This document shows positions 2,075 to 58,969 of a DNA stretch of 64,000 bases, one piece after another. This DNA comes from Fibrobacterales bacterium (GTDB lineage Bacteria > Fibrobacterota > Fibrobacteria > Fibrobacterales > CADBQJ01). The DNA lies in contig JAGCEZ010000055.1 in NCBI GenBank assembly GCA_017650365.1, forward strand, positions 7,453 to 71,452, written 5' to 3'. The notes under the pieces are model-generated. The model saw only the letters and a program-made list of their open reading frames with translations. It searched no databases and was not told where the DNA came from. The stretch's first letter is position 1. Each line of letters begins with the position of its first letter. The translations under genes were made by a program, and so were the position numbers.

Positions 2075-2099
2075 CCGATTTACCGATACCAATAATAGT

Positions 2100-2107
2100 T
2101 AGATTTA
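2100..2107 (+). promoter_or_regulatory. -7 type promoter box TAGATTTA upstream of tsaD
   Basis: Only AT-rich island in the 36-nt ftsX/tsaD divergent spacer. 21 nt before ATG 2129, with a GGAG SD in between. The mirror box TATTATTG (2097-2090) faces ftsX. Confidence 0.5.
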
Positions 2108-2128
2108 GGACCCTTTCCGGAGCGGAAG

Positions 2129-3145
2129 ATGATCGTGCTCGGCATCGAAAGTTCCTGCGACGAAACCGCCTGCGGCATCGTGGACGGCGACGGCAGGGTG
2201 CTGGCCAACGAACTCTACTCGCAGATCCCCGAACACGCGCCCTTCGGGGGCGTCGTCCCCGAAGTGGCCGCCCGCGCGCACCTCGAGAAGGTCGGCCCGA
2301 TCGTCCGGGCCGCGCTCGACAAGGCGGGAATCGCCCTTCCGGACGTGGACGTCGTTGCCTACACGCGCGGCCCGGGGCTCATGGGCCCGGTCCTCGTCGG
2401 GGCCTCGTTCGCGCGCGGGCTCGCCGCGGCGCTCGGAAAGCCGGCGGCCGGAATCAACCACCTCGAGGGCCACATCGCCGCGGCGAGGCTCTCGCACCCG
2501 GACCTGGAGCCCCCGTTCCTGGCCCTCACGGTCTCGGGCGGGCACACCCAGATCGACCGCGCGCTTCCGGGCTTCCGGTTCGAGACGCTCGGGCAGACGC
2601 GCGACGACGCCGCGGGCGAGGCGTTCGACAAGTGCGGGAAGCTGCTCGGGCTGGGCTACCCCGCCGGACCCTACGTCAGCCGCGAGGCGAAGAACGGAGA
2701 CCGCTCGGCGTTCCGCTTCCCGCGGGCCCTGCGCGGCGTCGACACGCTGGACTTCAGCTTCTCCGGGCTCAAGAGCGCGGTCCTGCGGCTCGTGGAGAGC
2801 CGGCCCGCCGAAGAGCTTCTCGCCCGCCGCGCGGACGTCTGCGCCGGGCTGGAGGAGGCGATCGTGGACATGCTGACCGAGCGCGCGCTGCAGGCGGGCC
2901 AGGCGACCGGAATCAAGACCCTCGCGGTCTGCGGCGGGGTCTCCGCGAACCCGAGACTGCGCGAAAAGCTCCCGGCCGAACTGGAGAAGCGCGGCATGAA
3001 GGCCCTCTTCCCCGACCTGCGCTACTGCACCGACAACGGCGCGATGATCGCCGGAGCCGCCCTTTTCCGCCTGAAATCGCAGTGTCTGGTTTTTGAACAT
3101 TTGCCGGTCTCCCCGGGGCTGGAACTCGGCGAATTTCTACAATAG
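2129..3145 (+). CDS. tsaD: tRNA N6-adenosine threonylcarbamoyltransferase TsaD
   Basis: MIVLGIESSCDETACGIVDG.. signature, 338 aa, colinear with the Kae1/TsaD family. GGAG-type SD precedes ATG 2129. Confidence 0.95.
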   Translation: MIVLGIESSCDETACGIVDGDGRVLANELYSQIPEHAPFGGVVPEVAARAHLEKVGPIVRAALDKAGIALPDVDVVAYTRGPGLMGPVLVGASFARGLAAALGKPAAGINHLEGHIAAARLSHPDLEPPFLALTVSGGHTQIDRALPGFRFETLGQTRDDAAGEAFDKCGKLLGLGYPAGPYVSREAKNGDRSAFRFPRALRGVDTLDFSFSGLKSAVLRLVESRPAEELLARRADVCAGLEEAIVDMLTERALQAGQATGIKTLAVCGGVSANPRLREKLPAELEKRGMKALFPDLRYCTDNGAMIAGAALFRLKSQCLVFEHLPVSPGLELGEFLQ

Positions 3146-3150
3146 AAGGC

Positions 3151-3822
3151 ATGAAGGCCCGTTTCGCGCCGCTTTTCCCGGTTTTCGCCGCCGCGCTCTT
3201 CGCGCAGGAGGCCGTCCCCGCCGCGTCTCCCGAATCCGGAACGCCCGCGGCACCGCAGGCCGTCGAAACGCAGGTCTCCGAAGCGCCCGCGCCCGCCGCC
3301 GGAGAGCAGGCCGCCGCGCCCGAATCCGCCGCTCCCGCCCCCGAGGCCGCTTCTCCCGCGGCCGAGGCTCCCGCACAAGCGCCCGTTGCCGAAGCCGTGG
3401 TTCCCGCGGCCGAGGCCGCGGCGCCCGCTCCCGCGCCCGAAGAAAAGAAGGCCGAGGAACGCCCCGTCCCCGCCCCGCTCGCCCCTCCCTCGGAGGAGCG
3501 CCTCTCCACCAGCGGGAACAACACGTTCCAGGACGTCGAGATCTTCGGCGACAACTGGCTCTTCTCCCCCACGATCTGGTCCGACATGCTCCGCATGGAC
3601 GACGCCGACGCGATGGTCCAGAAGAACATCGAGGAGAAGAAGTTCGCGAACGACGAGTACTTCATGCGCAACGTGGACCGCGAGGAGTTCGAGGAGGAGC
3701 GCGTGCTCCTGATGTTCGAGGAGAAGGCGCGGCGCTACGAGAAGTACCTGAAGAAGATGCGCGCGGAGATCGCCGCGGACAGCGCGGCGGCCGCCGGAAA
3801 CGCGGATTCCGCCGCGCGCTAG
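3151..3822 (+). CDS. Secreted hypothetical protein (signal peptide, about 90 aa Ala/Pro/Glu-rich linker, charged C-terminal domain)
   Basis: MKARFAPLFPVFAAALFA/QE signal peptide. High GC3. Starts 5 nt after the tsaD stop, with a GAAGG SD. No family recognised. Confidence 0.6.
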   Translation: MKARFAPLFPVFAAALFAQEAVPAASPESGTPAAPQAVETQVSEAPAPAAGEQAAAPESAAPAPEAASPAAEAPAQAPVAEAVVPAAEAAAPAPAPEEKKAEERPVPAPLAPPSEERLSTSGNNTFQDVEIFGDNWLFSPTIWSDMLRMDDADAMVQKNIEEKKFANDEYFMRNVDREEFEEERVLLMFEEKARRYEKYLKKMRAEIAADSAAAAGNADSAAR

Positions 3823-3842
3823 CCTCCCCCTCCCCCGTTTTC

Positions 3843-3850
3843 TACATTTG
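3843..3850 (+). promoter_or_regulatory. -7 type promoter box TACATTTG
   Basis: Perfect TAnnTTTG, 23 nt before TTG 3874, with GGGAGG at 3864-3869. Confidence 0.5.
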
Positions 3851-3873
3851 CGCCTCCGAGATCGGGAGGTCGC

Positions 3874-5751: not shown

Positions 5752-5834
5752 TTCCCCCTCTTGGCGTTTTTGGGGATTTTAAGGCGTTTCATTGACATCG
5801 GGAGACCCCGTTTTTTGGCTATTATCTCGGTTCC

Positions 5835-9461: not shown

Positions 9462-9489
9462 CGCGGAGCGGCGCGGACGCCGCGGCGGG

Positions 9490-10863
9490 CTACTCCTCGT
9501 GGAACGAGATGGCGCACTTCGGCGCGAAGACGAACTCGCCGCGCCGGCGCCGCACGATGATCAGCTCGGGATGGCTCTCCTCGAGCCGCGCCATCAGGCG
9601 GTTGAGCCGCCCCTCGAAGTTCGGGTTCGAGACGTCGAGCGTGATCTCCGCGTCGCGCTTGAACTCGCGGTTCTCGAACGTCGTCCGCCCGGTGAGGAGG
9701 TAGGTCTTCAGCACGCGCCGGAAGATCTTCGCGGGGACGTTGCGGATGAAGTGCTCGCCGTTGATGGTGACGCTGTCGTCGACCGAGTGGTAGACGACCT
9801 CGGTCTTCGCCGAAATCGACTGGAGAAGGGCCGAATGGAGCGCGTCGATCCTCCGCGCGGTCTTCTTGTCCTCCGACAGGAGCCCTTCGACCAGGAGCTT
9901 CAGCGGATTGGCCGGGCCCTTCTTCGCCGGGAAGGGGGCGTAGCGGATGCGCGCGAGATAGACCGGGGCGCCGCAGCAGCAGCCCGGGCGGACGCGGGGC
10001 GGAACGCCCTTCGGGAGCTTCTCCGCGAGGACGACGACCGGGGAGTCCACGTCGAGCGGGTCGCGCATCGGCAGCCCGAACGACTTCGCCGCGGCCGAGA
10101 AGGCCTTGACCGCGCCGACCTCGCTCCCCTTCCAGAACGCCTTCTTCCCGCGGATCTCCAGGCCGGGGAGGAGGGTTTCGGCGGGAAGCACGTCGGCCAT
10201 CAGGTCGAGCTCCTCGTAGGGGGGCATCCCGAAGACCTCGGGCAGGTGCCGCAGCCAGGGGCAGAACCAGCGCGAGACGTCGAAGGGGATGCCCGTCGAC
10301 TCGTCCGCGTCGAAGAGGAACCAGGCCTCCGACGACGTCTTCCCGGGGCGGATCTCGATCAGCTCGTTGGTGCTGTGCGGGAAGAAGGTGCGGCTCAGCC
10401 GCTCGAACCGCTCCAGCAGGAACTCGCGGCGGTCCGGCGCGGCCAGCATGTCGCCCAGGTGGGGGTTGACCAGCGCCAGCCAGGCCTCCGCGGAGAAGAA
10501 CCGCCAGGGATGGACGCCGGAGTAGAAGGTCTTCACGAACTCGTCGAAGTCGATCCGCTCGTCGGCGCAGAACTCCTCCAGGGCTCCGAAGATCCTCCGG
10601 GCGACCTCGACCGGGACGGGCATCTCGGGGTCGCAGAGCAGCTGGATCTTCCGGAACGCGTCGAGGACGACCCCGTTGCGCTCCACGGGGATCCGGTCGA
10701 GGAAGCGCCCGATCTGCGGAGCGGAGAAGGAGAGGAGCATCGCCTTGTAGACGTGCCGGACGACGCTGATTTCGGGCGTCCCGTCGGCGGAGACGTCGTT
10801 TCCCAGGAATCCGGGGACGGAGGCCGGGGGAAGGAGGATCGTGTTGTTGGCCTGGAGCTTCAC
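9490..10863 (-). CDS. Putative transcriptional regulator: unrecognised about 350-aa N-terminal domain plus OmpR/PhoB-like winged-helix C-terminus
   Basis: C-terminus ..VTINGEHFIRNVPAKIFRRVLKTYLLTGRTTFENREFKRDAEITLDVSNPNFEGRLNRLMARLEESHPELIIVRRRRGEFVF follows the trans_reg_C pattern. GTG 10863 sits 5 nt after a minus-strand TATATTTA box, and codons 10741-10863 have high GC3. Alternative start ATG 10740. Confidence 0.6.
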   Translation of the reverse strand: MKLQANNTILLPPASVPGFLGNDVSADGTPEISVVRHVYKAMLLSFSAPQIGRFLDRIPVERNGVVLDAFRKIQLLCDPEMPVPVEVARRIFGALEEFCADERIDFDEFVKTFYSGVHPWRFFSAEAWLALVNPHLGDMLAAPDRREFLLERFERLSRTFFPHSTNELIEIRPGKTSSEAWFLFDADESTGIPFDVSRWFCPWLRHLPEVFGMPPYEELDLMADVLPAETLLPGLEIRGKKAFWKGSEVGAVKAFSAAAKSFGLPMRDPLDVDSPVVVLAEKLPKGVPPRVRPGCCCGAPVYLARIRYAPFPAKKGPANPLKLLVEGLLSEDKKTARRIDALHSALLQSISAKTEVVYHSVDDSVTINGEHFIRNVPAKIFRRVLKTYLLTGRTTFENREFKRDAEITLDVSNPNFEGRLNRLMARLEESHPELIIVRRRRGEFVFAPKCAISFHEE

Positions 10864-10868
10864 ATGGG

Positions 10869-10876
10869 TAAATATA
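10869..10876 (-). promoter_or_regulatory. -7 box TATATTTA for the divergent regulator gene (leaderless geometry)
   Basis: Minus strand reads TATATTTA-cccat-GTG(10863). Confidence 0.55.
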
Positions 10877-10880
10877 TTTG
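10873..10880 (+). promoter_or_regulatory. -7 box TATATTTG for mutL (leaderless geometry)
   Basis: Perfect TAnnTTTG, 4 nt before GTG 10885. Overlaps the opposite-strand box by 4 bp. Confidence 0.55.
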
Positions 10881-12723: not shown

Positions 12724-14411
12724 ACGCGTCGCGCGCCGCGGCCCTGGCCCTCGCTCCGGCCCTCCTCGCCCTCGCCCCGGCCCGCGCCGCCGAGGACCCG
12801 GTCCTGCCGTGGATGGAGTCGAAGCTGGAGGAGCTCGCGCCCGAGCTGGCTTCGCGCGCGGAGGACCCGGTCCTGCAGCTGCAGCTCTTCGTGGAAGACG
12901 CCGTGGACTGGACCGTCGCCGCGGACCGCGGCTCCCTCGTCTCCGAAAAGAGCGAGAACCGCCGGACCCTCCAGGCCAACGTGGTCCTGGGCGACTCCGC
13001 CTTCAGCAGCCGCCGGCCTCTCTACTGGGACGAGACCGTTCCCCCGAACCCGGGGAGCGCGGCCGCGCTTCCGGTGGACGCGTTCTCGGAGAAGCAGGCG
13101 GACCGCGCGGTCCGGCAGGCCTTCTTCTGGGCGCTGCAGGGCGCGCGCGCCCATTTCGCGCGGCTGAAGAGCGAGCGGAACGCGCTGGTCGCGGAGGAGA
13201 ACGCCGGGCTGGACCTCGCGCCCGCGGCGAAGGCGGACCTCGTCGACACCGCCGGACTGGCCCCGGTCGATTCCGCGGCGCGCGCCCTCCTGCGCGGGCG
13301 GATCCTCGCGCTTTCGCGCCGCTTCCTCGGGATCCCCTGGCTCCACAGGTCCGGGATCGAGCTCTCCTGCGCGGGCGAAGTCGCGCGCAAGGCCTTCAGC
13401 GGGCTGCCCGCCACGCGCGACGTCCGGCGGCTCTGCGACCTGAACGTCACGGTGGCCACGAGCACGGACGACGGCATGATCCTGGCGCAGAACCGGACCT
13501 GGAGCTTCGCCTCCGTCCCGCGCGACGTGGACACGGCCGCGGTCGGCCGCGCGGTCGACTCGCTCCTCCTCCGGCTCGACTCGCTGCGCGGCGCGAAGGT
13601 CGGCGAGCCCTACGCCGGGCCCGTGATCCTCGACGGGCCCGCGGCCGCGGTCTACGTGCACGAGGTGCTCGGACACCGGCTCGAAAGCCACCGGCTCCGC
13701 AAGAAGACCGACGGGCAGACGTTCCTGCGCAAGCGCGGGGAATCCGTCGCCGCGCCCGAGTTCTCGCTCGTCGACGACCCCACGGTCGCCGAATGGGACG
13801 GGGAGGCGGTGCACGGCTTCTACCGCGTGGACGAGGAAGGGACGCCCGCGCGCCGCGCCGAGCTCGTCCGCGACGGGAAGCTGGTCGGGTTCCTCGACGG
13901 GCGCGCCACGCTCAGCCCCGAAGACTCCTCCAACGGCCACGGGCGCGGATTCCCGCAGATCTCGCGCATGGGGACGACGATCCTCGCCACGTCGAAGCCG
14001 GTCCCGCGCGAAGAGCTGCGCGCCCGCTTCCTGAAGGCGCTGGCCGAACGCGGGCTCCCCTACGGCCTGGTCGTCCACGACCTGCAGGAGGGCTACACCC
14101 TCACCGGACGGAGCTATCCGCAGACCTTCCGGCTCCACGCCCTCTCCGCCACGCGCGTCTGGGCCGACGGCCGTCCCGACGAGCTTGTCCGGGGCGTCAA
14201 CCTCTCCGGATCCCCGCTGAGCTCGCTCGCGCAGCTCGTCGCCGCGTCGGACAGGATGTCGCTCTTCAACGGCTGGTGCGGCGCCGAAAACGGCTGGGTC
14301 CCCGTCTCCTCCATCGCGCCCGACCTGCTGTTCGCGACCCTCGAGGCCGAGATCCAGCCGACGCGCTCCGTCCCGAAGCCGCAACTGCCGCCGCCGGAGG
14401 AAAAGCCGTGA
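12720..14411 (+). CDS. TldD-family metalloprotease with signal peptide
   Basis: MNASRAAALALAPALLALAPARA/AE signal peptide. HEVLGHRLE metal-binding motif typical of TldD. ATGA overlap with the mutL stop. Confidence 0.85.
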   Translation: MNASRAAALALAPALLALAPARAAEDPVLPWMESKLEELAPELASRAEDPVLQLQLFVEDAVDWTVAADRGSLVSEKSENRRTLQANVVLGDSAFSSRRPLYWDETVPPNPGSAAALPVDAFSEKQADRAVRQAFFWALQGARAHFARLKSERNALVAEENAGLDLAPAAKADLVDTAGLAPVDSAARALLRGRILALSRRFLGIPWLHRSGIELSCAGEVARKAFSGLPATRDVRRLCDLNVTVATSTDDGMILAQNRTWSFASVPRDVDTAAVGRAVDSLLLRLDSLRGAKVGEPYAGPVILDGPAAAVYVHEVLGHRLESHRLRKKTDGQTFLRKRGESVAAPEFSLVDDPTVAEWDGEAVHGFYRVDEEGTPARRAELVRDGKLVGFLDGRATLSPEDSSNGHGRGFPQISRMGTTILATSKPVPREELRARFLKALAERGLPYGLVVHDLQEGYTLTGRSYPQTFRLHALSATRVWADGRPDELVRGVNLSGSPLSSLAQLVAASDRMSLFNGWCGAENGWVPVSSIAPDLLFATLEAEIQPTRSVPKPQLPPPEEKP

Positions 14412-16090
14412 AGCGCGCCTCGCTTTCCGCGCTCCTCTTCGGCGCGCTTCTCTCCGCGGAGGCCGGCGCGGCCGCCTCGCCCGACGCGATCGTCGCGGCG
14501 CTCAGGGACGAGATCCGCCGCGCGGAGGACTCCCTGGTCTCGGCCGACGGCGCGCGCCCGCACTACCTCGCCGCCCGGTACACCGTCCACCGGACCCGGG
14601 TCTTCGCCGCGGAACGCGGGGAACCGCTCCCCGGATCGCGCCAGGACTTCACGGACCTGGTGGCCGAGATCCGCGTCGGCTCGCCGGAGCTCGACGACGG
14701 CCGCTTCGAGGGAACCCCGACCGAACCCTTCCCCTTCGACAGCCCGCTTCCGCGCGACGGGAGCCCGACGCTGCTGCGCCGCGCGCTCTGGCTGCTCTTC
14801 GACGACGGCTTCCGCCAGGCCGCGCGCACGCTGGCCGAAAAGCGCGAGTGGCTGAAGACGCATCCGCAGCTGCGGCCGGAGGGCCCGGACTTCGTCCCGC
14901 CCGAACCGCGCACGGCCGTCGACACGCTCCCGCCGTTCTCGCCCGACGCCGCGGAAATCAAGTCGAAGCTGGCGGAGATCAGCTCCTTCGCGCTGGAGTT
15001 CCCCGAACTGGTCGAGGCGCCCGTGGCGCTGCAGATCGTGGAGAGCCGGCGCTACGTCGTGGACAACCTGGGAACCGTGTCGATCTCCGACGACCGCGAG
15101 TTCCGCGCGGTCGCCGCGGTCCTGACGCAGGCGGAGGACGGGACTCCGCTCTGGGACTGGTGGAAGGAGGCCTCGCCCGTCTGGAGCGAGCTCGACCTCG
15201 CGCCGGCGAAGCGGATCCTCTCCGAACGCGCCCGGAACCTCGTCGCGCTGCGCGGAGCCGCGCCCGGCGAAGGCTACCGCGGGCCGGTGCTCTTCGAAGG
15301 CGAGGCCGCGGCGCAGCTCGTCTGGTACGCGCTGGGCGAACCGCTCTGCGCCGGCGAGGCGGAGATGCAGCTGGGCGAATACGCGCCGCCCCGCATCCTG
15401 CTGACGACGCTCGGGCACCGTCTGCTGCCCAAGGGGTTCTCGCTGGACGACGTCCCCTCGCTCTCCTCCTTCCTCGGGCGCACGCCGCCCGGGCGCTACC
15501 GCGCGGACCACGAGGGCTCCCCCGCGCGCGACCTGGCCCTGATCCGGAACGGCATCCTCGAGGAGCTCCCCGCCGGGCTCGCCCCGCTCCGCGGGCAGGC
15601 GCGCGGAAACGGACACTTCCGGTTCGGGCAGGCCTACCCGGGCACGCTGCTCTTCTCCTGCTCCCCCGAGCGCGAGACCAGGGACGTCGGCGCGGCCTAC
15701 CTCCAGGCGGTGCGCGACGAGGGCAACCCCTCCGGAATCGCGGTGGAGCGGTTCGAGGACTCCGACGCGGCCTCGCTGCTCTCCTCGCCCCTCGCGGACG
15801 GGATCCGCTCGAAGCTCTCGGTCTCCTCGCTCAACGTCACGCAGCTCCCCGCGCCCACGGCGATGGTCTCCGTCGCCGCGGACGGCTCCCGGACGCCCGT
15901 CCGCCCGCTGGAATTCGCGACCATGGGGATCTCCTCCTTCCGCGACTGGACCCTCTGCGGCCGTGACTACGCGCTCCACTCGCCCGGGCTGAACTCCGCA
16001 GTGGCCGCGCCCCCGCTCGCCATCGGCTTCGCCACGCTGCAGCTTCCCGCGCCCCAGAGCCGGGAGTCCATGGACTGGATCCTGAAGTAG
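14408..16090 (+). CDS. PmbA/TldE-like partner protein (no HExxH) with signal peptide
   Basis: GTG start in a GTGA overlap with the TldD-like stop. (M)KRASLSALLFGALLSAEA signal peptide. Similar length and architecture to the upstream paralog, without the metal motif. Confidence 0.72.
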   Translation: MKRASLSALLFGALLSAEAGAAASPDAIVAALRDEIRRAEDSLVSADGARPHYLAARYTVHRTRVFAAERGEPLPGSRQDFTDLVAEIRVGSPELDDGRFEGTPTEPFPFDSPLPRDGSPTLLRRALWLLFDDGFRQAARTLAEKREWLKTHPQLRPEGPDFVPPEPRTAVDTLPPFSPDAAEIKSKLAEISSFALEFPELVEAPVALQIVESRRYVVDNLGTVSISDDREFRAVAAVLTQAEDGTPLWDWWKEASPVWSELDLAPAKRILSERARNLVALRGAAPGEGYRGPVLFEGEAAAQLVWYALGEPLCAGEAEMQLGEYAPPRILLTTLGHRLLPKGFSLDDVPSLSSFLGRTPPGRYRADHEGSPARDLALIRNGILEELPAGLAPLRGQARGNGHFRFGQAYPGTLLFSCSPERETRDVGAAYLQAVRDEGNPSGIAVERFEDSDAASLLSSPLADGIRSKLSVSSLNVTQLPAPTAMVSVAADGSRTPVRPLEFATMGISSFRDWTLCGRDYALHSPGLNSAVAAPPLAIGFATLQLPAPQSRESMDWILK

Positions 16091-16107: not shown

Positions 16108-16143
16108 AATAAAAGCCCCCCGCCGGAGCGGGGGGCGCTTTGT
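16108..16143. terminator. Bidirectional intrinsic terminator between the convergent PmbA-like gene and ftsZ
   Basis: aataaaa-GCCCCCCGC-cgga-GCGGGGGGC-gctttgt: a perfect 9-bp GC stem (16115-16123 / 16128-16136). The U-run is strong in the ftsZ direction (TTTTATT) and weaker in the plus direction. Confidence 0.8.
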
Positions 16144-30271: not shown

Positions 30272-30292
30272 GTCCTATCTACCTCGATACTA

Positions 30293-30338
30293 CCCACAAT
30301 ACACCACTACTCCCAAAATATAACCACAGTTCCCCACC
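30293..30338 (-). promoter_or_regulatory. Array of 10-bp-phased GTGG direct repeats (putative MraZ boxes) flanking the mraZ -7 box
   Basis: Minus strand reads GTGGGGAACT GTGGTTATAT TTTGGGAGTA GTGGTGTATT GTGGGTAGTA. On the plus strand, CCAC occurs at 30294, 30304, 30324 and 30334, and the middle unit is replaced by TATATTTT (30322-30315). The array lies 22-67 nt upstream of the mraZ ATG. Confidence 0.6.
30315..30322 (-). promoter_or_regulatory. -7 box TATATTTT for mraZ/dcw operon
   Basis: Minus-strand TATATTTT, 43 nt upstream of the mraZ ATG, embedded in the GTGG repeat array. Confidence 0.45.
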
Positions 30339-30427: not shown

Positions 30428-30458
30428 ATGAAAAGGCCCCTTCCAAGCGGAAGGGGCC
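30428..30458 (-). terminator. Intrinsic terminator downstream of PFOR
   Basis: Minus strand: GGCCCCTTCC-gctt-GGAAGGGGCC-TTTTCAT. Perfect 10-bp stem (30435-30444 / 30449-30458) followed by a U-run, 25 nt after the PFOR stop. Confidence 0.8.
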
Positions 30459-30482
30459 TTCGGTTCCGTTCTCCGGAGCGGT

Positions 30483-34114: not shown

Positions 34115-34122
34115 GAAATCTA
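34115..34122 (-). promoter_or_regulatory. -7 box TAGATTTC for PFOR
   Basis: Minus-strand TTAGATTTCGG, 68 nt upstream of ATG 34046. Same octamer as upstream of both GH18 genes. Confidence 0.5.
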
Positions 34123-34197
34123 ATTTTTCCTCTTCCCGGGAACCCGCCCTCCCCCGACTTTTGCGATTTTCCCCTAGTTTTTCCCTCGTTTCCCGAG

Positions 34198-34205
34198 TAT
34201 CTTTA
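34198..34205 (+). promoter_or_regulatory. Candidate -7 box TATCTTTA for the nuo operon
   Basis: 53 nt before the nuoA ATG. An alternative TAGTTTTT lies at 34175-34182. Confidence 0.35.
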
Positions 34206-34258: not shown

Positions 34259-34642
34259 ATGTCTTCTTACGCGATTTTGGCATTTTTCCTCTTTCTGGGA
34301 GCCGTGCTCGCGTGGGGAGCCATGCTCACGGGCCACCTCCTCTCCCCCAAAACGCCCCGAACCCCCTTCCAGCGGGAAGCCTACGAGTGCGGAAACTCCA
34401 CGATCGGCCCCACCCGCGTCCGCTTCCGCGTCGGCTACGTCTTCTTCGCGCTGCTCTTCCTGGTCTTCGACATCGAGACCCTCCTGCTCTTCCCCGCCGT
34501 CTCCGCGCTCTCCGCGTCGCTCCGCGGCGAAGAGACCGGGATCGCCCCCCTGCTGGCCGCGGGCGAGGTGCTGCTCTTCGTCGCCGTCCTCTCGTTCGGG
34601 CTCGTCTGGGCCTGGCGGAAAGGAGCCCTGAAATGGGACTGA
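34259..34642 (+). CDS. nuoA: NADH-quinone oxidoreductase subunit A
   Basis: [38 protein letters not shown] 34259 is preceded by GGAAGG. The track ORF starts at an upstream TTG. Confidence 0.85.
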
Positions 34643-45122: not shown

Positions 45123-45295
45123 GTCTCTCCTTCCCCCGTTTCTGCATCCAATCTATAAAGCGGTAGCCGGAAAACGGAACAAACATCTCCTGTTCCGTGC
45201 GGCAGGCTTTAAACGGAAGTTTATCCGGCCAAAACCTCCTCCTGTTTTTACAGGATAAGCTTCCTTTTGGCCATATATCAACTTCCCCGTTTGGC

Positions 45296-45303
45296 TATTT
45301 TTT
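45296..45303 (+). promoter_or_regulatory. Candidate -7 box TATTTTTT for lipoprotein A
   Basis: 32 nt before ATG 45336, with an AGAGG SD between. Confidence 0.4.
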
Positions 45304-45335: not shown

Positions 45336-46523
45336 ATGACCGCTCGCAATTCGCTTCTCTCCCTCGCCGCCGCCCTCGCGCTCGGCTGCCTCGTCTCCTG
45401 CGGAGACTCCACGGGCGGATCCGGCGGATCGAACGGTTCGGGCAGCGTCTCCGGCGTCAAAAGCAGCATCAAGGTCGTGGGCGACACCATCCGCTACACC
45501 GAAGAGCGGACCGTCAAGATCTACTCCGTCGACGAAGAGGCGCGCGTCATGCTCGCCAGATCGCCCCAGGAGAACTACTGCGTCCGCGAAGACGGAGTCC
45601 TGTCGTGGGAGACCGTGAAGGAACTCCCCGACACGATGACGCTCTCATACAGCTTCGGCACGATCCCCGGCGAACTCGTCGGGTTCCTGGAGCAGAATGG
45701 CTACGACGTCGAAGGCCGGGTCGTGCTTTACCTGTTCGAAGACGAATACTACGCGAACATCTTCCTGGGGAGAGACTCCTCCACCATCTTCGGCGAATGG
45801 CAGGAGACCCCCTGCTACGTTGATCTGGACTACTACGGCGGCGGCGTCGGTTGCGACGACACCGTCGTCGAAGGGACCTTGAAGATCGGGAATGGCTCGG
45901 TGACGGAAAAGAGCACGACCAGCGTCTCCAAGAACTACTGGATGTACGACAAGCCCTTCCGCTCCGCCTTCATGGGCTCGCTCTACGAACGGCTGGCCAC
46001 GGGCCGCGCCTGGCCCCAGCTCTACCCGCACGAGATGTTTACGGAAGACTCCGTCGAAGTCCTGAAGGTCATGGGCGACTACATGATTGCGGTCAAGGAA
46101 CAGACGGCGAAGTCGCAGACGTTCGAAATCGACGGAAAGAGCTACACGGCCAGGATTCTCAAGAGTTCCGCCGACTACCGCGGCTACGCCGGCGGCCTGG
46201 ACTACTCCGTCGACATGGAAGTCGCCGACGAATCCGAGACCTGCCGGATCACCGTCCGCTCGATTTCCAAAGTCGACGGGGAATACTGCGCCGACAAGTA
46301 TATGGACAACTACGAATGGGACTCCGAGTGGGACTACGACGACAACGAGTTCGAATACGCGGACGCGATTCTCTGGAGCAACGCCGAAGAACACGGCGCC
46401 TGTCTGAAGCGCATCGCCGCCCGCGGGAGCGACGCCGCGCCCGCCGTCGCCAAGGCCGCCCGCAGGACCGCCGCGAACAAGATCCAGATCCGCCCCGCCA
46501 AGAAACGGCTCTTCGCCCGCTAG
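45336..46523 (+). CDS. Lipoprotein of unknown family (paralog A)
   Basis: MTARNSLLSLAAALALGCLVSC/GDS lipobox, Gly/Ser linker. Colinear with the downstream paralog (shared GDTIRY.EER, LGRDSS..FGEW, TPCY, EKSQTF, GGLDYS, ETCRI, GNEFEYAD, AC.KRIAA). AGAGG SD before ATG 45336. Confidence 0.7.
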   Translation: MTARNSLLSLAAALALGCLVSCGDSTGGSGGSNGSGSVSGVKSSIKVVGDTIRYTEERTVKIYSVDEEARVMLARSPQENYCVREDGVLSWETVKELPDTMTLSYSFGTIPGELVGFLEQNGYDVEGRVVLYLFEDEYYANIFLGRDSSTIFGEWQETPCYVDLDYYGGGVGCDDTVVEGTLKIGNGSVTEKSTTSVSKNYWMYDKPFRSAFMGSLYERLATGRAWPQLYPHEMFTEDSVEVLKVMGDYMIAVKEQTAKSQTFEIDGKSYTARILKSSADYRGYAGGLDYSVDMEVADESETCRITVRSISKVDGEYCADKYMDNYEWDSEWDYDDNEFEYADAILWSNAEEHGACLKRIAARGSDAAPAVAKAARRTAANKIQIRPAKKRLFAR

Positions 46524-51213: not shown

Positions 51214-51218
51214 ATCGG

Positions 51219-51226
51219 CAAAGATA
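51219..51226 (-). promoter_or_regulatory. -7 box TATCTTTG for the DJ-1 operon (leaderless geometry)
   Basis: Minus strand reads TATCTTTG-ccgat-ATG(51213); perfect TAnnTTTG. Confidence 0.6.
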
Positions 51227-51235
51227 GGAAGTTTC

Positions 51236-51243
51236 TAGTTTTG
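51236..51243 (+). promoter_or_regulatory. -7 box TAGTTTTG for hslO-thrH (leaderless geometry)
   Basis: TAGTTTTG-cgccc-GTG(51249); perfect TAnnTTTG. Confidence 0.6.
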
Positions 51244-51248
51244 CGCCC

Positions 51249-52732: not shown

Positions 52733-52779
52733 ACGCGGCGAAATCGCCTCAAAAACCGAAATTCCGGCGCGAGAACGGA

Positions 52780-52808
52780 GTGGCCACAGCGGTGACCACT
52801 TCTTTTTT
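52780..52808 (+). terminator. Intrinsic terminator after thrH
   Basis: GTGGCCAC-agcg-GTGACCAC (8-bp stem with one C/A mismatch) followed by TTCTTTTTT. Confidence 0.65.
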
Positions 52809-52849
52809 AGGAAGCCCTTGGACAGGAGGCGGGCGCCCCTTTGTCTCGC

Positions 52850-52857
52850 TATTTTTA
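52850..52857 (+). promoter_or_regulatory. -7 box TATTTTTA before the candidate small ORF
   Basis: TATTTTTA-caaac-ATG(52863). Confidence 0.45.
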
Positions 52858-52862
52858 CAAAC

Positions 52863-53072
52863 ATGAAGACGCAGGAACTCCGTACTCTCGTCGAAGCCTC
52901 CTCCGCCACGATGGTCGCCAGCCATCAGGCCAAGCTTCGGATGTACCGGAACGAAATCGACCGGCTGATCGCCCAGCCCGCCGCGCCCGCCTTCCCGACG
53001 CCCCGGGCCCGCCGCAGGGCGCTGAGCCGTTTCGTTCCGCAGTTCGTCCTCTTCTGGATTCTCTTCCGCTGA
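52863..53072 (+). CDS. Candidate small (69 aa) leaderless protein with hydrophobic C-terminal tail
   Basis: The ATG is exactly 5 nt after TATTTTTA (52850-52857), the same geometry as hslO and DJ-1. About 85% G/C at third codon positions. MKTQELRTLVEASSATMVASHQAKLRMYRNEIDRLIAQ..FVPQFVLFWILFR. No homolog recognised. Confidence 0.4.
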   Translation: MKTQELRTLVEASSATMVASHQAKLRMYRNEIDRLIAQPAAPAFPTPRARRRALSRFVPQFVLFWILFR

Positions 53073-53166
53073 GAAGAGTCTCCGGACCGGCGCGTTGGAC
53101 GAAACTCCCCCTTTTTCGTTCGTGCGAAGGGGAGGAAACGGGCCGATTTTCCTAATTTCCTCCAAG

Positions 53167-54009: not shown

Positions 54010-54021
54010 GGAGGGGGAACG

Positions 54022-55314
54022 ATGACCGCGCGCACACGTCTTCTTCTCCCCGCGGTTTCCGCCGCGCTCGCCCTGCTCTGCGCCCTGGCCGCCTGCTCCG
54101 ACGGGACCGGCGCCGAAGAGAAGCGCGAACCTGTCGAGGCGAGCGTCTCCCTCGGCAAGACCGAGATCTCCGACTTCTCCGAATTCCGCGTGGAGTGCGC
54201 CGTGAAGGGAAAGGCCGCGGGCGACACCGTCAAGCTGGCGTTCGAGCTGCCCGAGGGCTTCTCGCTCCGCTACGCCGCCGACGACGACCCCTTCGACCCC
54301 GAGCTGGGCGGGACTCTCCGCGGCGGCGACAAGGTCGTCCTCTCCGACAAGCTGCATCTGGTGCTGCTCGACGAACTCGACGTGATCGTCTCCATCATCG
54401 TCGTCAAGCCCGAGAAGAAGCCGAGCTCCTCCGCGAAGGGAAGTTCTGAAAAGGGCTCCTCCGGAAAGGGCGACTCCTCCGGCTCCGGCTCGTCCGAAGA
54501 GGGCGGTTCCTCCGGCGAGGGAGGTTCCTCCGATTCCGGCTCCTCCGTCGAGGAATCCTCCGGCTCCGGGTCCTCCGAAGCCCTCTCCTCCTCCGAAGAG
54601 AGCAGCTCCTCGTCGGAGGCCGTTCCCGAGCCGCAGCTTCCCGGCTGGACCGCCGCGGCCTGGGGCACCACATCGAACGCGATGGCGACCGAGAAGGACA
54701 ATCGGATCATTGGCTCGGGCGACCATTACCAGGGAAGCGCGAACGCGCAGATCTCCGCCGACCGGATCGTCCTGACCACCGCCGCCTCCAAAAAGCGCAC
54801 CTGCGGCATCGGCATCTGCGGCAGCTGGAGCAGCCGCAACTCCACCGGACTGCTCTTCACCGGATCGGTCTCCGCCGGCGACGCGCAGGCGATGTACAAC
54901 GCCAGCGGGAGCGCATCGGACTTCAGGGGAATCCTCTCCTTCTCCGGCATCCCCTTCGCCGGGAAGCCCGCGGCGTTCGAAGCGAGCTACTCCTACGAGC
55001 ACGTGAACGCGAACGGGCAGCGCGGGCTGATCGTCGTTCTGCTCCTGAACGGCTCCACGCTCGTGGGCTCCGCCGCCAAGGAGATTGGAAGCGCGGAAAC
55101 CCAGCAGAACCTCCAGGTGCCCTTCGTCTACGGCGACGGCGCCTGGTACGACTCCTCGCTCCTCGTCCCCGCCGGTCTGCAGCGCGGCACCGGCTCGGAA
55201 GAGGTGACCTCGGCCGTCGCCCTCTTCGCGTCGAGCGGGACCGGCGCGGGCGACGTGGGCGCGGGATCGTCGTTGACCGTCTCCTCCTTCCGTCTGATCT
55301 ACGGAGGGCCCTAG
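54022..55314 (+). CDS. Lipoprotein with Ser/Gly-rich linker and C-terminal PCMD-like (putative carbohydrate metabolism) domain
   Basis: LCALAAC/SDG lipobox. About 65-aa S/G/E linker. The C-terminal region shares ..GIPFAGKPAAFEASYSY.. and a ..LTVSSFRLIYG ending with the downstream PCMD-like gene. GGAGGGGG SD. Confidence 0.68.
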   Translation: MTARTRLLLPAVSAALALLCALAACSDGTGAEEKREPVEASVSLGKTEISDFSEFRVECAVKGKAAGDTVKLAFELPEGFSLRYAADDDPFDPELGGTLRGGDKVVLSDKLHLVLLDELDVIVSIIVVKPEKKPSSSAKGSSEKGSSGKGDSSGSGSSEEGGSSGEGGSSDSGSSVEESSGSGSSEALSSSEESSSSSEAVPEPQLPGWTAAAWGTTSNAMATEKDNRIIGSGDHYQGSANAQISADRIVLTTAASKKRTCGIGICGSWSSRNSTGLLFTGSVSAGDAQAMYNASGSASDFRGILSFSGIPFAGKPAAFEASYSYEHVNANGQRGLIVVLLLNGSTLVGSAAKEIGSAETQQNLQVPFVYGDGAWYDSSLLVPAGLQRGTGSEEVTSAVALFASSGTGAGDVGAGSSLTVSSFRLIYGGP

Positions 55315-55316
55315 CC

Positions 55317-57200
55317 ATGAAACGGTTCCCGGCCCTTCTCTCCGCGGCGGCGCTGCTCCTTCTGGGGGCGTGCGAAGCCGCCTACGACACCTTCGGCGAC
55401 TCGGACTACAACGCGCTCGACGACTTCGGCTACGCCGAGCAGGAGGGGACGACCAGCGTCGACCTCGAGGCGCACCTCTTCCGCTCCTTCGTGACCGACT
55501 CCGTCCGCCCCGACTCGCTCACGCTCCGCTCGCTGAAGAAGAGCTCGCTCTCCTCGGTCCACCGCGTGCTCAGCAAGATCGACGGCGTGCCCGCCGACTC
55601 GGCGGAACGCGACTCGCTGGCCCGCTGGGTGGCGATCGCGAAGCGGCCCTACGAAAAGGGCGACCGCGTGCAGCTGCCGAAGAGCGGAAAGATCTACCTG
55701 GTCTCGGTCTCGGAATCGGGCCGGCGCGACCTCTGGCTCTCGCAGGTGGAGGTGACCCTGGAAGGGGGCGAGGGCGAAGGCGGCGGAAACGGCGGCGAAG
55801 GCGGGAGCGGCGGCCAGGGCGGCGGCGACAAGCCCAGGCCGAAGAGCGGCGACGTCTCGCTCTCCGTGACGCTCGTCGGGCAAGTGGGCGCGAACGTCTT
55901 CCCCGGCGGCGAAGGGCTGCCCGACACGCTCGCGGCGATGGTCCCCGCCGGCGTGCCGCTGACCGCGCTCGAAGTGGCTTCCGTCAAGCTGGGCGCAGGC
56001 GCCGCCGTCGAGCCCGACCCCTACGGCGTCTCCGACTTCTCCTCGCCCGTCGCGTTCCGCGTGACCGCCGAAGACGGCGCGACGAAGGACTACCTGCTGG
56101 TGGCGGCCAACGCGCCCGAGGACTTCGTGGCCTCGCCTCCCCCGCGGCTCCTCTCCTTCTCCAGCGGGACGAACGCCGTGACGATCGACACCGTCGCCCG
56201 CACGGTCTTCGTCGAGACGGAGTACCTGGCCGACCTGAAGGCCGTGCCCGTCTCCTTCTCGCTGAGCGAGAACGCGACGGCGACCGGGCTCGTCTCCGGC
56301 GGAACCGCCGACCTCTCGCGCCCGGTCGTCCTGACGGTGGCCAACGACATGGGGCTGACCGCGGAATACCGCGTGCAGGCAGGCTGCCAGATTCCCTTCT
56401 CGGACTTCGACAGCTGGACCTCCACCAACCGGACCGTGATGACGGGCCATTGGACCGTCCCGGGGAGCTCCGCGACCTTCGACACCCTCTGGGACAACGG
56501 CAACCAGTACGGCGTGGCGCTCGTGGGCGACATCATCCTCTCGCAGAGGCAGAGCAGCGGAAGCCGCGTCTACGCCCATCTGGAGACCGTCAACAAGGTC
56601 AAGCTGGCCAGCGGGAACCTCTTCACCGCGAAAATGAACCCCAAGGGAGTGGGCGCGCTCAACATGTCCTCGTACAAGGACGGCAACGAGCTGATCGACT
56701 TCGGGCGCCCCTTCGCCGGCCGTCCGACCGCGATCGAGTTCACGGCGAAGTACTCCCCCGCGGGACAGGACTCCTGCGACCTCTACGTGCTGCTGGAGAA
56801 CCGGGGCGACCGCAACAGCAACGTCGGCCGCAGCACCGCGCAGAAGAACTACCTCGTGGCCTCGGCCTGGTACCGCTCCACCACCGACCACGACGCCTCG
56901 CTCCCCGACGTGGAGTCGATTTCCGAACCGGACGCCGACGGGTTCCGCACGATCCGCCTCCGGCTGAAATACGGCGAGCCGCTGGCGGGCTCCCCCATCT
57001 TCCGCTCGGCCGCCTTCGCGACCTCGCTCGAAAACAAGAACGGGATCTTCAACGCCGTCACCCGGGGCGACGCCTACGCCGACTACGACGTGACCCACAT
57101 CCGCGTCGTGATGGCCTCGAGCGCCGACGGCAACCACTACAACGGTTCCGCGGGATCCGCGCTCGACGTGGACGAAGTGCGCCTGGTCTACGGCGACTGA
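55317..57200 (+). CDS. Lipoprotein with two cadherin-like beta-sandwich repeats and a C-terminal PCMD domain
   Basis: LLLLGAC/EA lipobox. ..SDFSSPVAFRVTAEDGATKDYLLV.. and ..LSRPVVLTVANDMGLTAEYRVQ.. repeats. PCMD pattern IPFSDFDSW..LWDNGNQ..LFTAKMN..FGRPFAGRPTAIEFTAKYSP..LDVDEVRLVYG. Confidence 0.75.
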   Translation: MKRFPALLSAAALLLLGACEAAYDTFGDSDYNALDDFGYAEQEGTTSVDLEAHLFRSFVTDSVRPDSLTLRSLKKSSLSSVHRVLSKIDGVPADSAERDSLARWVAIAKRPYEKGDRVQLPKSGKIYLVSVSESGRRDLWLSQVEVTLEGGEGEGGGNGGEGGSGGQGGGDKPRPKSGDVSLSVTLVGQVGANVFPGGEGLPDTLAAMVPAGVPLTALEVASVKLGAGAAVEPDPYGVSDFSSPVAFRVTAEDGATKDYLLVAANAPEDFVASPPPRLLSFSSGTNAVTIDTVARTVFVETEYLADLKAVPVSFSLSENATATGLVSGGTADLSRPVVLTVANDMGLTAEYRVQAGCQIPFSDFDSWTSTNRTVMTGHWTVPGSSATFDTLWDNGNQYGVALVGDIILSQRQSSGSRVYAHLETVNKVKLASGNLFTAKMNPKGVGALNMSSYKDGNELIDFGRPFAGRPTAIEFTAKYSPAGQDSCDLYVLLENRGDRNSNVGRSTAQKNYLVASAWYRSTTDHDASLPDVESISEPDADGFRTIRLRLKYGEPLAGSPIFRSAAFATSLENKNGIFNAVTRGDAYADYDVTHIRVVMASSADGNHYNGSAGSALDVDEVRLVYGD

Positions 57201-57294
57201 CCGGACCCGGCGGGGACTTTCCGAAATCCTTTTTTCGGCCTACTCGAACGGCTCCGCAAGCCCGGTTTTACAAAGCCCGGGCCCGCGCAAGGGG

Positions 57295-57302
57295 TAGATT
57301 TC
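57295..57302 (+). promoter_or_regulatory. -7 box TAGATTTC for GH18 paralog 1
   Basis: GGGGTAGATTTCGG, 34 nt before the ATG. Conserved with the paralog 2 upstream region. Confidence 0.5.
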
Positions 57303-57336
57303 GGTCAAAGACCTCCCGCAGCCCAAGGGGACAGAC

Positions 57337-58890
57337 ATGAAATTCCCGGCCCTTTCCGCCGCCACCGTCCTTTCCGCCCTGCTCGCGTCCGCGGCGCTGA
57401 CCGCCTGCGGCGACTCGGGGACCTCCAACTCCGGCGGTTCCGGCTCCGGCGACGCGAAGTTCCGGGCCGAGGAGTACTGCTTCCTCAACGCGGACCTCGC
57501 GGCGTCGCTCGGCGTTTCGGACTGCGCCGCCCTGACCGACGAGCAGCGCGCGGAGTTCGAAGGACACTACGAGGCGTCCGGCAAGGCCGAAGGGCGCTGG
57601 TGGAACGTCCGGGCGCAATGCTCGGACCGTCTGGAAGCCGACGTCCCGCTCCCCTGCTCCGCCGACTCGATCGCGGCGCTCCGCAAGTGCTCCGACGACG
57701 GATGCCCGGAGGCGCTGGAGGCCTGCATGGCCGGCGTCTCCGCCCTCTCGTCCGCCCTCCCCTGCGACTTCGGGACGGTGCAGTACTTCCGCGCCTGCCA
57801 GGCGGCGAAAAGCGCGCTGTGCCTCGGGCTGACCATGCGCGACGCCGACTACCTCGCAGCCAGCTGGCTCCTCGAAGGCAAAAAGGAGGAATGGGCCTAC
57901 ACGAACGTCCCCGCGGACTTCAGCGCCTCCGGCTACTGCGACCTCAACCCCGCGGTCAAGGCGATCTACGGCCCGGACTGCGACGAGCGGACCGTCTCCT
58001 GGCACTACGTCCTCTTCGGAAAGCCGCAGGGGCTGCAGTACAAGACCGAGGAGATCGTCGATCCCTACGCGGACTACCGGGCGATTGCGAACGAACCCGC
58101 GTTCAAGATCGTCGGCTACGTCCAGACCGGCACCTCGGGCGGATGGAACGCGGACCACTACAAACACGCGACGCACCTCGTGGTCTTCGGACCGGAGACG
58201 AACGCGAACGGCGACATCGTCTGGAAGGGAACCTCCCCCGAAGACCTGAAGGCCTGGGGCTACTACGGATCCAAGACCGACACCCGCGTCATGGTCGCGA
58301 TCGGCGGATGGGGCAAGTCGAACGGCTTCACGGCCATGGCGAACAGCGCGACGGCGCGCGAGAACTTCGTGAACCAGCTGGCCGCGCTCAAGGACTACCA
58401 CGTCTACGGCGTCGACATCGACTGGGAGAACGACGGCAACACCTGGCCCTACCCCGGTTCCGGCGTCAACGCCCTGCTGTCCGACATGGCGGCGAAGCTG
58501 CATCCGCTGGGGATGAAGATCAGCATCGCCCTCGCCTCCACGACCGCGGGCGGGCTGAACGCGACCGGGGCCGCCGCCGTCGACTGGATCAACGTGATGT
58601 GCTACGACGGCAGCAACCACGGGACCTTCGCCAAGATCGCCTCCTGCAAGGAGACCTACGCCGGATACCAGTCGAAATCGGTGATCGGCGTGCCGTTCTA
58701 CGTCGGCAACACCGCGTACAGCAAGGGCGCCTCGAGCGAAGTGGTCGGCCTGGACGGGATGGCGACGGCGACGAACTCCATCAAGAGCTGGGGCCCCGGC
58801 ATCATGATCTGGGACCTCAGCCACGACAAGACCGATCCGGAATCCTCGCTGTTGGTCAAAATCGCCGAAACGGCGGGCTACAATCCCTAA
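57337..58890 (+). CDS. GH18-like (chitinase/endo-beta-N-acetylglucosaminidase family) lipoprotein, paralog 1
   Basis: AALTAC/GDS lipobox. Cys-rich N-terminal module. GH18 core ..VMVAIGGWGKSNGF.. and YGVDIDWEN (DxDxE catalytic motif), ..WINVMCYD.., ..GIMIWDLSHD.. Confidence 0.8.
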   Translation: MKFPALSAATVLSALLASAALTACGDSGTSNSGGSGSGDAKFRAEEYCFLNADLAASLGVSDCAALTDEQRAEFEGHYEASGKAEGRWWNVRAQCSDRLEADVPLPCSADSIAALRKCSDDGCPEALEACMAGVSALSSALPCDFGTVQYFRACQAAKSALCLGLTMRDADYLAASWLLEGKKEEWAYTNVPADFSASGYCDLNPAVKAIYGPDCDERTVSWHYVLFGKPQGLQYKTEEIVDPYADYRAIANEPAFKIVGYVQTGTSGGWNADHYKHATHLVVFGPETNANGDIVWKGTSPEDLKAWGYYGSKTDTRVMVAIGGWGKSNGFTAMANSATARENFVNQLAALKDYHVYGVDIDWENDGNTWPYPGSGVNALLSDMAAKLHPLGMKISIALASTTAGGLNATGAAAVDWINVMCYDGSNHGTFAKIASCKETYAGYQSKSVIGVPFYVGNTAYSKGASSEVVGLDGMATATNSIKSWGPGIMIWDLSHDKTDPESSLLVKIAETAGYNP

Positions 58891-58934
58891 AACGCCCTCA
58901 AAAGAGGACGGGAACAGGTGAATTTTGCCTTTAC
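58891..58934 (+). other. Decayed relic of the DTW-gene 5' end, carried along by the GH18 tandem duplication
   Basis: 'aacgcc..gGTGAATTTTGCCTTTAc' after the GH18-1 stop aligns with 'aacgct..cGGGAATTTTGCCTTTGc' after the GH18-2 stop, which is the real DTW N-terminus REFCLC. The register is offset by one codon (30 vs 33 nt from the stop). Confidence 0.55.
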
Positions 58935-58961
58935 CCGGCGAATTCGGCCGCGGCGAGGGGC

Positions 58962-58969
58962 TAGATTTC
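58962..58969 (+). promoter_or_regulatory. -7 box TAGATTTC for GH18 paralog 2
   Basis: GGGGCTAGATTTCC, 38 nt before the ATG. Confidence 0.5.

Follow-up and report, generated by a model that had tools for sequence, protein, structure and literature searches.

A TAnnTTT box with two spacing classes as the putative main promoter element of a high-GC Fibrobacterales bacterium

Genes and taxonomic placement of the window

The DNA analysed here, hereafter called the window, is a stretch of 64 kb from a rumen Fibrobacterales bacterium (contig JAGCEZ010000055.1, positions 7,453 to 71,452) in which the octamer TAnnTTTN recurs upstream of most transcription units, and we consider it quite probable that its first seven bases form the main promoter element of this organism. 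The window has a G+C (GC) content of 68.9%, and a codon log-odds model trained on its long open reading frames (ORFs) calls around 50 genes that together cover 96.9% of the sequence and leave 2,012 bp (3.1%) of intergenic DNA. Pfam matches back the labels TsaD, FtsX, MutL, FtsZ, an MraZ-headed dcw cluster, PFOR, NuoA, a metallophosphoesterase, DJ-1, Hsp33 (hslO) and two GH18 proteins, and the DnaE label is taken from the public gene call. These matches agree with the gene names given in a preliminary description of the same DNA, with the exception of a "regulator" of 457 amino acids (aa) that has no Pfam match and for which we found no evidence of a regulatory role. No sigma-70 family gene was detected in the window with Pfam, a regular expression for sigma region 2.4 retrieved no sigma gene across more than 90 fetched loci, and Rfam and tRNA scans of the window gave no matches.

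The window proteins are identical to the NCBI entries MBO7500482-MBO7500521, filed as "MAG: ... [Fibrobacterales bacterium]" (MAG, metagenome-assembled genome), and the same sequences are present in ENA metagenome assemblies. The closest named relatives of its DnaE belong to Fibrobacterales and Fibrobacter (45-47% identity), a further DnaE relative (P0005) shares 68% identity, and the gene orders ORF3874-dnaE and DJ-1/hslO/HAD hydrolase are common to the window, Fibrobacter and Hallerella. Judged by its proteins, the window thus comes from a Fibrobacterota lineage of high GC content; this phylum contributes the F in the Fibrobacterota-Chlorobi-Bacteroidota (FCB) superphylum and is a sister lineage of Bacteroidota. 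The motif had previously been regarded as taxonomically informative, and indeed it pointed to the FCB group to which the window proteins belong; because the window is from Fibrobacterota, a Bacteroidota-like promoter fits its taxonomy and is no anomaly. The box is not peculiar to a high-GC genome and belongs to the phylum Fibrobacterota as a whole, including members with 42-57% GC. GC content varies widely in this group, from 69% in the lineage of the window over 64% (comparison locus L090) and 53% (L006) to 43-57% in the Fibrobacter and Hallerella loci (L087, L088, L009 and L093).

TAnnTTT boxes at the starts of transcription units

The preliminary description had listed 16 boxes and proposed that the octamer precedes almost every operon start, and all 16 are present at the positions and spacings given there, 13 as strict TAnnTTTN and three in looser form. 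Distances are counted from the end of the box to the start codon in nucleotides (nt):

2090-2097, minus strand: ftsX, variant box TATTATTG (A at position 5), 15 nt to ATG 2074
2100-2107, plus strand: tsaD, box TAGATTTA, 21 nt to ATG 2129, GGAG Shine-Dalgarno site in the spacer
3843-3850, plus strand: ORF3874, box TACATTTG with TTTTC on its 5' side, 23 nt to a TTG start
5820-5827, plus strand: dnaE, weak variant TATTATCT, 7 nt to ATG 5835
10869-10876, minus strand: 457-aa gene (9490-10863), box TATATTTA, 5 nt to GTG 10863, putatively leaderless
10873-10880, plus strand: mutL, box TATATTTG overlapping the preceding box on the opposite strand, 4 nt to GTG 10885, putatively leaderless
30315-30322, minus strand: mraZ at the head of the dcw cluster, box TATATTTT, 43 nt to ATG 30271
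34115-34122, minus strand: PFOR, box TAGATTTC, 68 nt to ATG 34046
34198-34205, plus strand: nuoA, box TATCTTTA, 53 nt to ATG 34259 or 98 nt if the start is at 34304
45148-45155, minus strand: metallophosphoesterase, variant TAGATTGG (TTG replaces TTT), 25 nt to ATG 45122
45296-45303, plus strand: lipoprotein gene 45336-46523, box TATTTTTT, 32 nt to ATG
51219-51226, minus strand: DJ-1, box TATCTTTG, 5 nt to ATG 51213, putatively leaderless
51236-51243, plus strand: hslO, box TAGTTTTG, 5 nt to GTG 51249, putatively leaderless
52850-52857, plus strand: small ORF 52863-53072 (69 aa), box TATTTTTA, 5 nt to ATG, putatively leaderless
57295-57302, plus strand: GH18-1, box TAGATTTC, 34 nt to ATG 57337
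58962-58969, plus strand: GH18-2, box TAGATTTC, 38 nt to ATG 59008, a paralogous copy of the GH18-1 promoter

Around 20 transcription-unit starts can be defined in the window, and beyond the 13 with a strict box and the three with a variant only four are without one (ftsZ, 46554, 53215 and 61014). The ftsX and tsaD boxes lie back to back, and nuoA has two extra boxes on the same strand at 34121-34128 and 34175-34182. The two GH18 boxes belong to tandem paralogs and are therefore not independent, so that they count as one event.

Enrichment and orientation

The strict octamer occurs 18 times on both strands of the window; 15 copies are intergenic (2,012 bp) and three lie in 62 kb of coding sequence, which bears out the earlier expectation that it is concentrated outside genes. 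The coding copies match the number expected from codon-order shuffles (3.65 +/- 1.75), and we therefore see no avoidance in coding DNA beyond codon usage. A simple account of this pattern would be composition: intergenic DNA is relatively AT-rich in this genome (44-66% GC compared to 69% overall), and a loose A/T pattern with three free positions might recur there by chance. Yet the 15 intergenic copies of TAnnTTT compare to 2.2 +/- 1.5 in mononucleotide and 4.0 +/- 1.9 in dinucleotide-preserving shuffles, a 4-7x enrichment, and not one of 2,000 shuffles of either type gave as many as 15. TAnnTTT is the most frequent in intergenic DNA of the 32 A/T patterns with its shape, ahead of a runner-up with only eight copies, and it again ranks first of 32, at 8-fold over expectation, within 80 nt upstream of transcription-unit starts. 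A compositional artefact would also not explain why the boxes are locked to one strand, why their spacing is bimodal, or why TA and TTT are retained in relatives where the adjacent bases drift. At the level of the window this explanation is refuted, and we give it next to no credence in general.

Run without prior information on 19 upstream regions, a Gibbs sampler found nTAnnTTT in 12 of them. The same one-site-per-sequence sampler proved unfit for comparisons across phyla, where it missed the known -7 box in Bacteroidota and found poly-A. In unidirectional intergenic regions with a box, all five boxes face the downstream gene. Short AT-rich sites of this kind are typical of nucleoid-associated proteins, and the box might in principle be bound by such a protein or by a global transcription factor instead of a sigma factor. 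An asymmetric, orientation-locked box that occurs once per transcription unit at the distances expected of a promoter, and that precedes unrelated housekeeping genes across the whole phylum, makes this highly improbable. In the window, these genes comprise tsaD, dnaE, mutL, the mraZ/dcw cluster, nuo and PFOR, and because they are unrelated housekeeping genes we favour the primary sigma factor as the reader of the box.

Two spacing classes and putative leaderless genes

For every gene at the head of a transcription unit, spacing was taken as the distance between its start codon and the closest TAnnTTTN. In the window, these spacers are 4, 5, 5, 5 and 5 nt, followed by 21, 23, 32, 34, 38, 43, 68 and 98 nt, with none between 6 and 20 nt; the last value, for nuoA, becomes 53 nt with the start assigned in the preliminary description. 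Loci for comparison came from a DnaE-alignment scan of a genome collection (all phyla, including two Fibrobacterota loci) and from exact-protein look-ups, and a scan of the genome collection with DnaE alone gave no matches. Other Fibrobacterota with 42-64% GC have spacers of 2, 4 (four times), 5 (six times), 7 and 14 nt and then from 18 nt upwards. The two spacing classes noted earlier are real, with boxes either 4-5 nt or at least 18 nt from the start codon. Counted over all transcription units, a box 4-5 nt before the start codon is present as follows:

Window: 5 of 20 units
Other Fibrobacterota: 10 of 61 units
Bacteroidota: 8 of 175 units (4.6%)
Other FCB lineages: 1 of 52 units
Acidobacteriota: 0 of 172 units
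Firmicutes: 0 of 116 units
Proteobacteria, Spirochaetes, Nitrospirae and the Planctomycetes-Verrucomicrobia-Chlamydiae (PVC) group: 0 of 143 units

The short class is therefore restricted to FCB lineages, with no case among 431 units outside of them, and it is around 4-fold more frequent in Fibrobacterota than in Bacteroidota (15 of 81 compared to 8 of 175; Fisher p = 6e-4). We regard it as stronger evidence than the overall enrichment of the motif.

In Bacteroidota, the distance from the box to the transcription start site (TSS) is 4-5 nt (PMC6847099, PMC9723704). With this published distance, transcripts of the short class would begin at the first base of the start codon itself, which implies that these genes are leaderless; around a fifth of transcription units appear to be of this kind. 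The 4.6% that we find for Bacteroidota are in line with the leaderless shares published for B. thetaiotaomicron (3.7%; PMC7366714) and F. psychrophilum (5.5%; PMC9723704). Of the five putative leaderless genes of the window, two start with ATG and three with GTG, and those of other Fibrobacterota always start with ATG; with spacers of just 4-5 nt, none of them has a Shine-Dalgarno site. Their start codons are supported by Pfam matches that begin at residue 2 of DJ-1 and at residue 4 of the hslO product (Hsp33). For mutL, a start at GTG 10885 gives the N-terminus VAPRIRFLPEECINQIAAGEV, a canonical MutL start, and the public call at ATG 10864 places the TATATTTG box inside the gene and abuts the start of the divergent gene (L001 14599). 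In these MAGs, the starts of leaderless genes are probably miscalled systematically in this way.

The boxes at 4-5 nt might alternatively be AT-rich signals for translation initiation on leadered mRNAs that come from promoters farther upstream, in which case there would be no leaderless class; a precedent comes from Bacteroidetes, where A/T enrichment with its centre 12-13 nt ahead of the start codon has been ascribed to translation (PMC3155529). We think this improbable on several grounds. The same heptamer with the same T at -16 and C at -13 also occurs 18-70 nt from start codons with a Shine-Dalgarno site in between, where it cannot be a ribosome signal, and the sharp spacing of 4-5 nt coincides with the box-to-TSS distance known from the literature. 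Furthermore, the start codons of the divergent pairs are only 21 and 35 nt apart, so that any other promoter would sit inside the opposite gene. A substitute signal would also be unneeded given that 30 of 48 window genes have a Shine-Dalgarno site (GGAG, GAGG or AGGA at -20 to -4).

Conservation in relatives

The TA and TTT positions of the boxes are kept in relatives down to around 50% protein identity, and the two nn positions and the flanks drift. The box of ORF3874 is TACATTTG in locus L004 (74% aa identity), TACTTTTG in L005 (56%) and TATTTTTG in L006 (ca. 50%; 53% GC); all three homologs have TTTTC before the box and a TTG start, and TA and TTTG are retained. The tsaD box is identical in L004 and reads TAGATTCT in L006, where TAGATT is kept, and the ftsX box of L006 is TATCATTG with TAT(T/C)ATTG retained. 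Even the weak dnaE box has a counterpart in L006, TAGATTGT, which likewise lies exactly 7 nt from the ATG.

The putative leaderless layout is conserved as well. For hslO, the arrangement is TAGTTTTG-CGCCC-GTG in the window, TACCTTTG-GGGCC-GTG in L091 (84% aa identity) and TACATTTG-TGCCC-ATG in Fibrobacter locus L093 (43% aa identity), so that the nn and spacer bases have changed across these three loci and the box, the 5 nt and the start codon have been kept; L092 has TAAATTGG-ACCA-GTG with 4 nt. DJ-1 of L091 has TATCTTTG followed by 5 nt of altered spacer and ATG, the box of the 457-aa gene is identical in L004, and mutL of Fibrobacter locus L087 has TATATTTT-ctgca-ATG in the same layout as in the window. 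The small ORF, which follows the HAD hydrolase gene, has a positional homolog in L091 (4125-4364, 79 aa) that is preceded by TAAATTTT with 5 nt to its ATG.

Separately, we note a form that is one base shorter, TAnnTTGG, which precedes hslO by 4 nt in L092 (L092 1-95) and is also seen at the phosphoesterase gene of the window (45148-45155). It recalls motif SM5 of F. psychrophilum, TAnnTTGY, which is distinct from the sigma-A motifs SM1-3 of that organism (PMC9723704).

Comparison with known promoter types

The promoter recognised by sigma-ABfr of Bacteroidota combines a -7 element TAnnTTTG with a -33 element TTTG (Bayley 2000 and Vingadassalom 2005, as cited in PMC7366714 and PMC6847099), and its -7 motif is backed by differential RNA sequencing in B. 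thetaiotaomicron and F. psychrophilum (PMC7366714, PMC9723704). The box spans positions -12 to -5 as T-12, A-11, T-8, T-7, T-6 and G-5 (PMC9723704, PMC6847099). The boxes of the window resemble it in their TA-nn-TTT core, in their dominance upstream of housekeeping genes, in an implied transcription start 4-5 nt after the box, and in the minority of genes for which this distance leads directly to a start codon. An A/T-rich patch at around -18/-16 resembles the one of F. johnsoniae, and the -33 partner may be weak or absent, as reported for that species (PMC6847099).

They differ from it in several respects. T at -16 is found in 24 of 35 Fibrobacterota promoters compared to 32% of the Bacteroidota set, and C at -13 in 17 of 35 compared to 19%; weak T-richness at -41 to -38 is seen in window promoters only. 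The F. johnsoniae consensus TAHHTTTG has essentially never a G at -10/-9, but window boxes often have G at position 3: five of the 13 are of the TAG type (TAGATTT four times, TAGTTTT once), compared to around 5% with G at -10 in other Fibrobacterota, so that the frequent G of the window may simply reflect its high GC content. Bacteroidota are without Shine-Dalgarno sites, unlike the window with its 30 of 48 genes, and earlier surveys indeed detected these sites in Fibrobacteres and not in Bacteroidetes/Chlorobi (PMC3155529, PMC10783764). The earlier assignment of the octamer to the Bacteroidota-type -7 element is supported by enrichment, strand, conservation, spacing and taxonomy; the final G and the exclusion of G at position 3 do not carry over to the window.

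Outside of Bacteroidota, a comparison within the FCB group is Chlorobaculum tepidum, whose RpoD is reported to group with Bacteroidetes RpoD and has the motif TTG-N17-23-TA[ATC][ATC][AT]T (bioRxiv 10.1101/172254). Both organisms share a TA-nn-T-rich box that is related to the Bacteroidota -7 element and has no terminal G, but the C. tepidum consensus is a hexamer that bars G at positions 3-4 and comes with a TTG upstream element that is not seen in the window. The lineage of the window also has Shine-Dalgarno sites, which Chlorobi lack (PMC3155529), and the C. tepidum preprint does not use the term "leaderless" (bioRxiv 10.1101/172254). Leaderless units are otherwise described in Actinobacteria and Deinococcus, e.g., in Mycobacterium (Cortes 2013 and Shell 2015, as cited in PMC6847099 and PMC12641261). 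These resemble the short class of Fibrobacterota in having a -10-type box at a fixed short distance from ATG or GTG in a sizeable share of units, and differ in their phylum and in the box itself, which is TAnnnT instead of TAnnTTT; the units described here are recognised by sequence. In mycobacteria, leaderless genes make up roughly a quarter to a third of all genes, which is above the ca. 16-25% of units predicted here. No account of Fibrobacterota promoters, be it a consensus, mapped TSSs or leaderless genes, turned up in a literature search that left out most subscription journals, and a 2025 pan-bacterial survey of promoters includes no Fibrobacterota (PMC12641261).

A candidate housekeeping promoter of Fibrobacterota

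We propose, with good though not full confidence, that this Fibrobacterales bacterium uses TAnnTTT as its main promoter element, a -10-equivalent that would be read by the housekeeping sigma factor and would serve both leadered and leaderless units. This sigma factor would recognise TAnnTTT as the counterpart of the Bacteroidota "-7 element" and transcription would start 4-5 nt beyond position 8 of the box. Leadered units such as tsaD, ORF3874, mraZ, PFOR, nuoA and GH18, with the box 18-70 nt from the start codon, would carry a leader of 15-65 nt, usually with a GGAG-type Shine-Dalgarno site. At leaderless units such as mutL, its divergent neighbour, DJ-1, hslO and the small ORF, where exactly 4-5 nt separate the box from ATG or GTG, the mRNA is predicted to begin at the start codon and to be translated without a leader. 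The analysis shows that the boxes are enriched, locked to the strand of the gene that follows, bimodal in their spacing and conserved across Fibrobacterota, with the 4-5 nt class confined to the FCB group; from this we infer that the primary sigma factor binds them, where exactly transcription starts, and that the short class is truly leaderless.

Several points weigh against this proposal. The G at -5 that is nearly invariant in Bacteroidota, and a hallmark of their promoters, is not preferred in Fibrobacterota: the eighth position is G in four of 13 window boxes and five of 22 in other Fibrobacterota, and all four bases occur. Because this position shows no G bias, we take the heptamer TAnnTTT as the unit. 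No clear column is apparent near -33 in the 13 + 22 aligned promoters, which are a small sample, and the samples are small in general, with 13 strict boxes in the window of which two are paralogous. The overall enrichment test is weak in AT-rich genomes, with Firmicutes at 1.6x and other Fibrobacterota at 2.4x. Start codons across phyla came from a simple gene caller, which reproduced the calls supplied with the three loci against which it was checked, and the start of mutL at GTG 10885, on which its spacing of 4 nt depends, was chosen with the box known.

The missing G is also what one would expect if the boxes were ordinary T-rich -10 boxes (TAnnnT) of a canonical RpoD without any Bacteroidota-like sigma factor. 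TAnnTTT is a subset of TAnnnT, TATATT matches TATAAT at five of six positions, and the native purF promoter of F. succinogenes drove a reporter in E. coli (PMC7668255). But if canonical boxes were in use, TAnnAT should stand out, and it is not enriched in the window (four copies compared to 3.0 expected) and is depleted in other Fibrobacterota (0.7x) as it is in Bacteroidota (0.6x), unlike in the non-FCB groups Acidobacteriota, Firmicutes and Proteobacteria (1.1-1.3x). There is no TTGACA -35 partner either, given that TTGACA/TATAAT composites are not enriched (three in 60 kb compared to ca. 1.9 in shuffles) and none is suitably placed. TAnnTTT has 15 intergenic copies compared to 0-4 for the other TAnnWWW forms, with the caveat that T at positions 5-7 was fixed by the choice of pattern, and the layout of box, 4-5 nt and start codon is confined to FCB lineages. 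On balance, we view ordinary -10 boxes as unlikely, if slightly less so than the translation signals discussed above.

The housekeeping promoter proposed here is best filed as the known FCB/Bacteroidota -7 promoter type, extended to Fibrobacterota and with a larger putative leaderless class. Whether it applies to all Fibrobacterota is a wider claim that we regard as evenly balanced, namely that a sigma-ABfr-like primary sigma factor reads TAnnTTT throughout the phylum with its own preference for T(-16)/C(-13) and no need for G(-5), and that 15-25% of units would be leaderless with Shine-Dalgarno sites retained. The promoter grammar of Bacteroidota would then extend to a third FCB phylum. If true, recognition of the -7 type predates the split of Fibrobacterota, Chlorobi and Bacteroidota and is separate from the later loss of Shine-Dalgarno sites in Bacteroidota and Chlorobi, so that both features can coexist. 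The predicted leaderless fraction is high and would be unusual for a Gram-negative gut bacterium. For Fibrobacterota MAGs, the box offers an annotation rule that prefers GTG 10885 over ATG 10864 for mutL and recovers small leaderless ORFs. It may also be a starting point for promoter design in Fibrobacter, an important degrader of cellulose in the rumen for which, to our knowledge, few genetic tools are available still.

Neighbouring elements

The predicted leader of mraZ (30272-30314, minus strand) contains TGGGA, GTGGTG and TGTGGGT at a phase of ca. 10 nt after the TATATTTT box. These repeats resemble the MraZ operator repeats of E. coli and may form an autoregulatory operator. Just before the mraZ box lies a strong intrinsic terminator that follows PFOR (30430-30460, minus strand), composed of AAGGCCCCTTCC-GCTT-GGAAGGGGCCTT and a T run. 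Terminator and repeats both fit the promoter proposed at this box. A bidirectional hairpin of 9 bp, all of them GC, is located at 16115-16136 between the convergent gene 14408-16090 and ftsZ.

The GH18 genes at 57337-58890 and 59008-60882 are tandem paralogs that are 75-84% identical at the nucleotide level, in register at a spacing of ca. 1983 nt, and each copy has a ggggTAGATTTC promoter. The word AATTTTGCCTTT occurs just twice in the window (58921 and 60916), once on the 3' side of each GH18 copy. Another word, CCGTTTTC, recurs in intergenic DNA at 3835, 45170 (minus strand), 53181, 53201 and 60940. At 60911-60947 it forms the T-tail of a hairpin GGGAATTTTGCC...GGCAAAGTTCCC, and because this copy ends a hairpin, some copies of the word are terminator tails. 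The copy at 3835 abuts the ORF3874 box and is kept as TTTTC in three relatives.

ORF3874 itself encodes a protein of 625 aa with a weak Helicase_C_3 match and uses a TTG start in four lineages (the window, L004, L005 and L006). In L088 (Hallerella), L089 and L090, the gene immediately before dnaE encodes a protein of similar size, with the same faint Helicase_C_3 match in L090, and a word-based search of 5.8 billion proteins found only three homologous clusters. A candidate hairpin that would sequester the Shine-Dalgarno site of ORF3874 (GCCTCC...GGGAGGT, 3852-3870) was rejected as it folds no better than shuffled sequences (z = 0.82).

The 457-aa gene at 9490-10863 (minus strand) is kept divergent from mutL in Fibrobacter locus L087 (16744-18102, 452 aa, no Pfam match). 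The small ORF at 52863-53072 encodes a protein with a hydrophobic C-terminus and no Pfam match, and its position, length and putative leaderless layout are kept in L091. Its sequence is far more divergent between the window and L091 than that of its neighbours, which are 84% identical.

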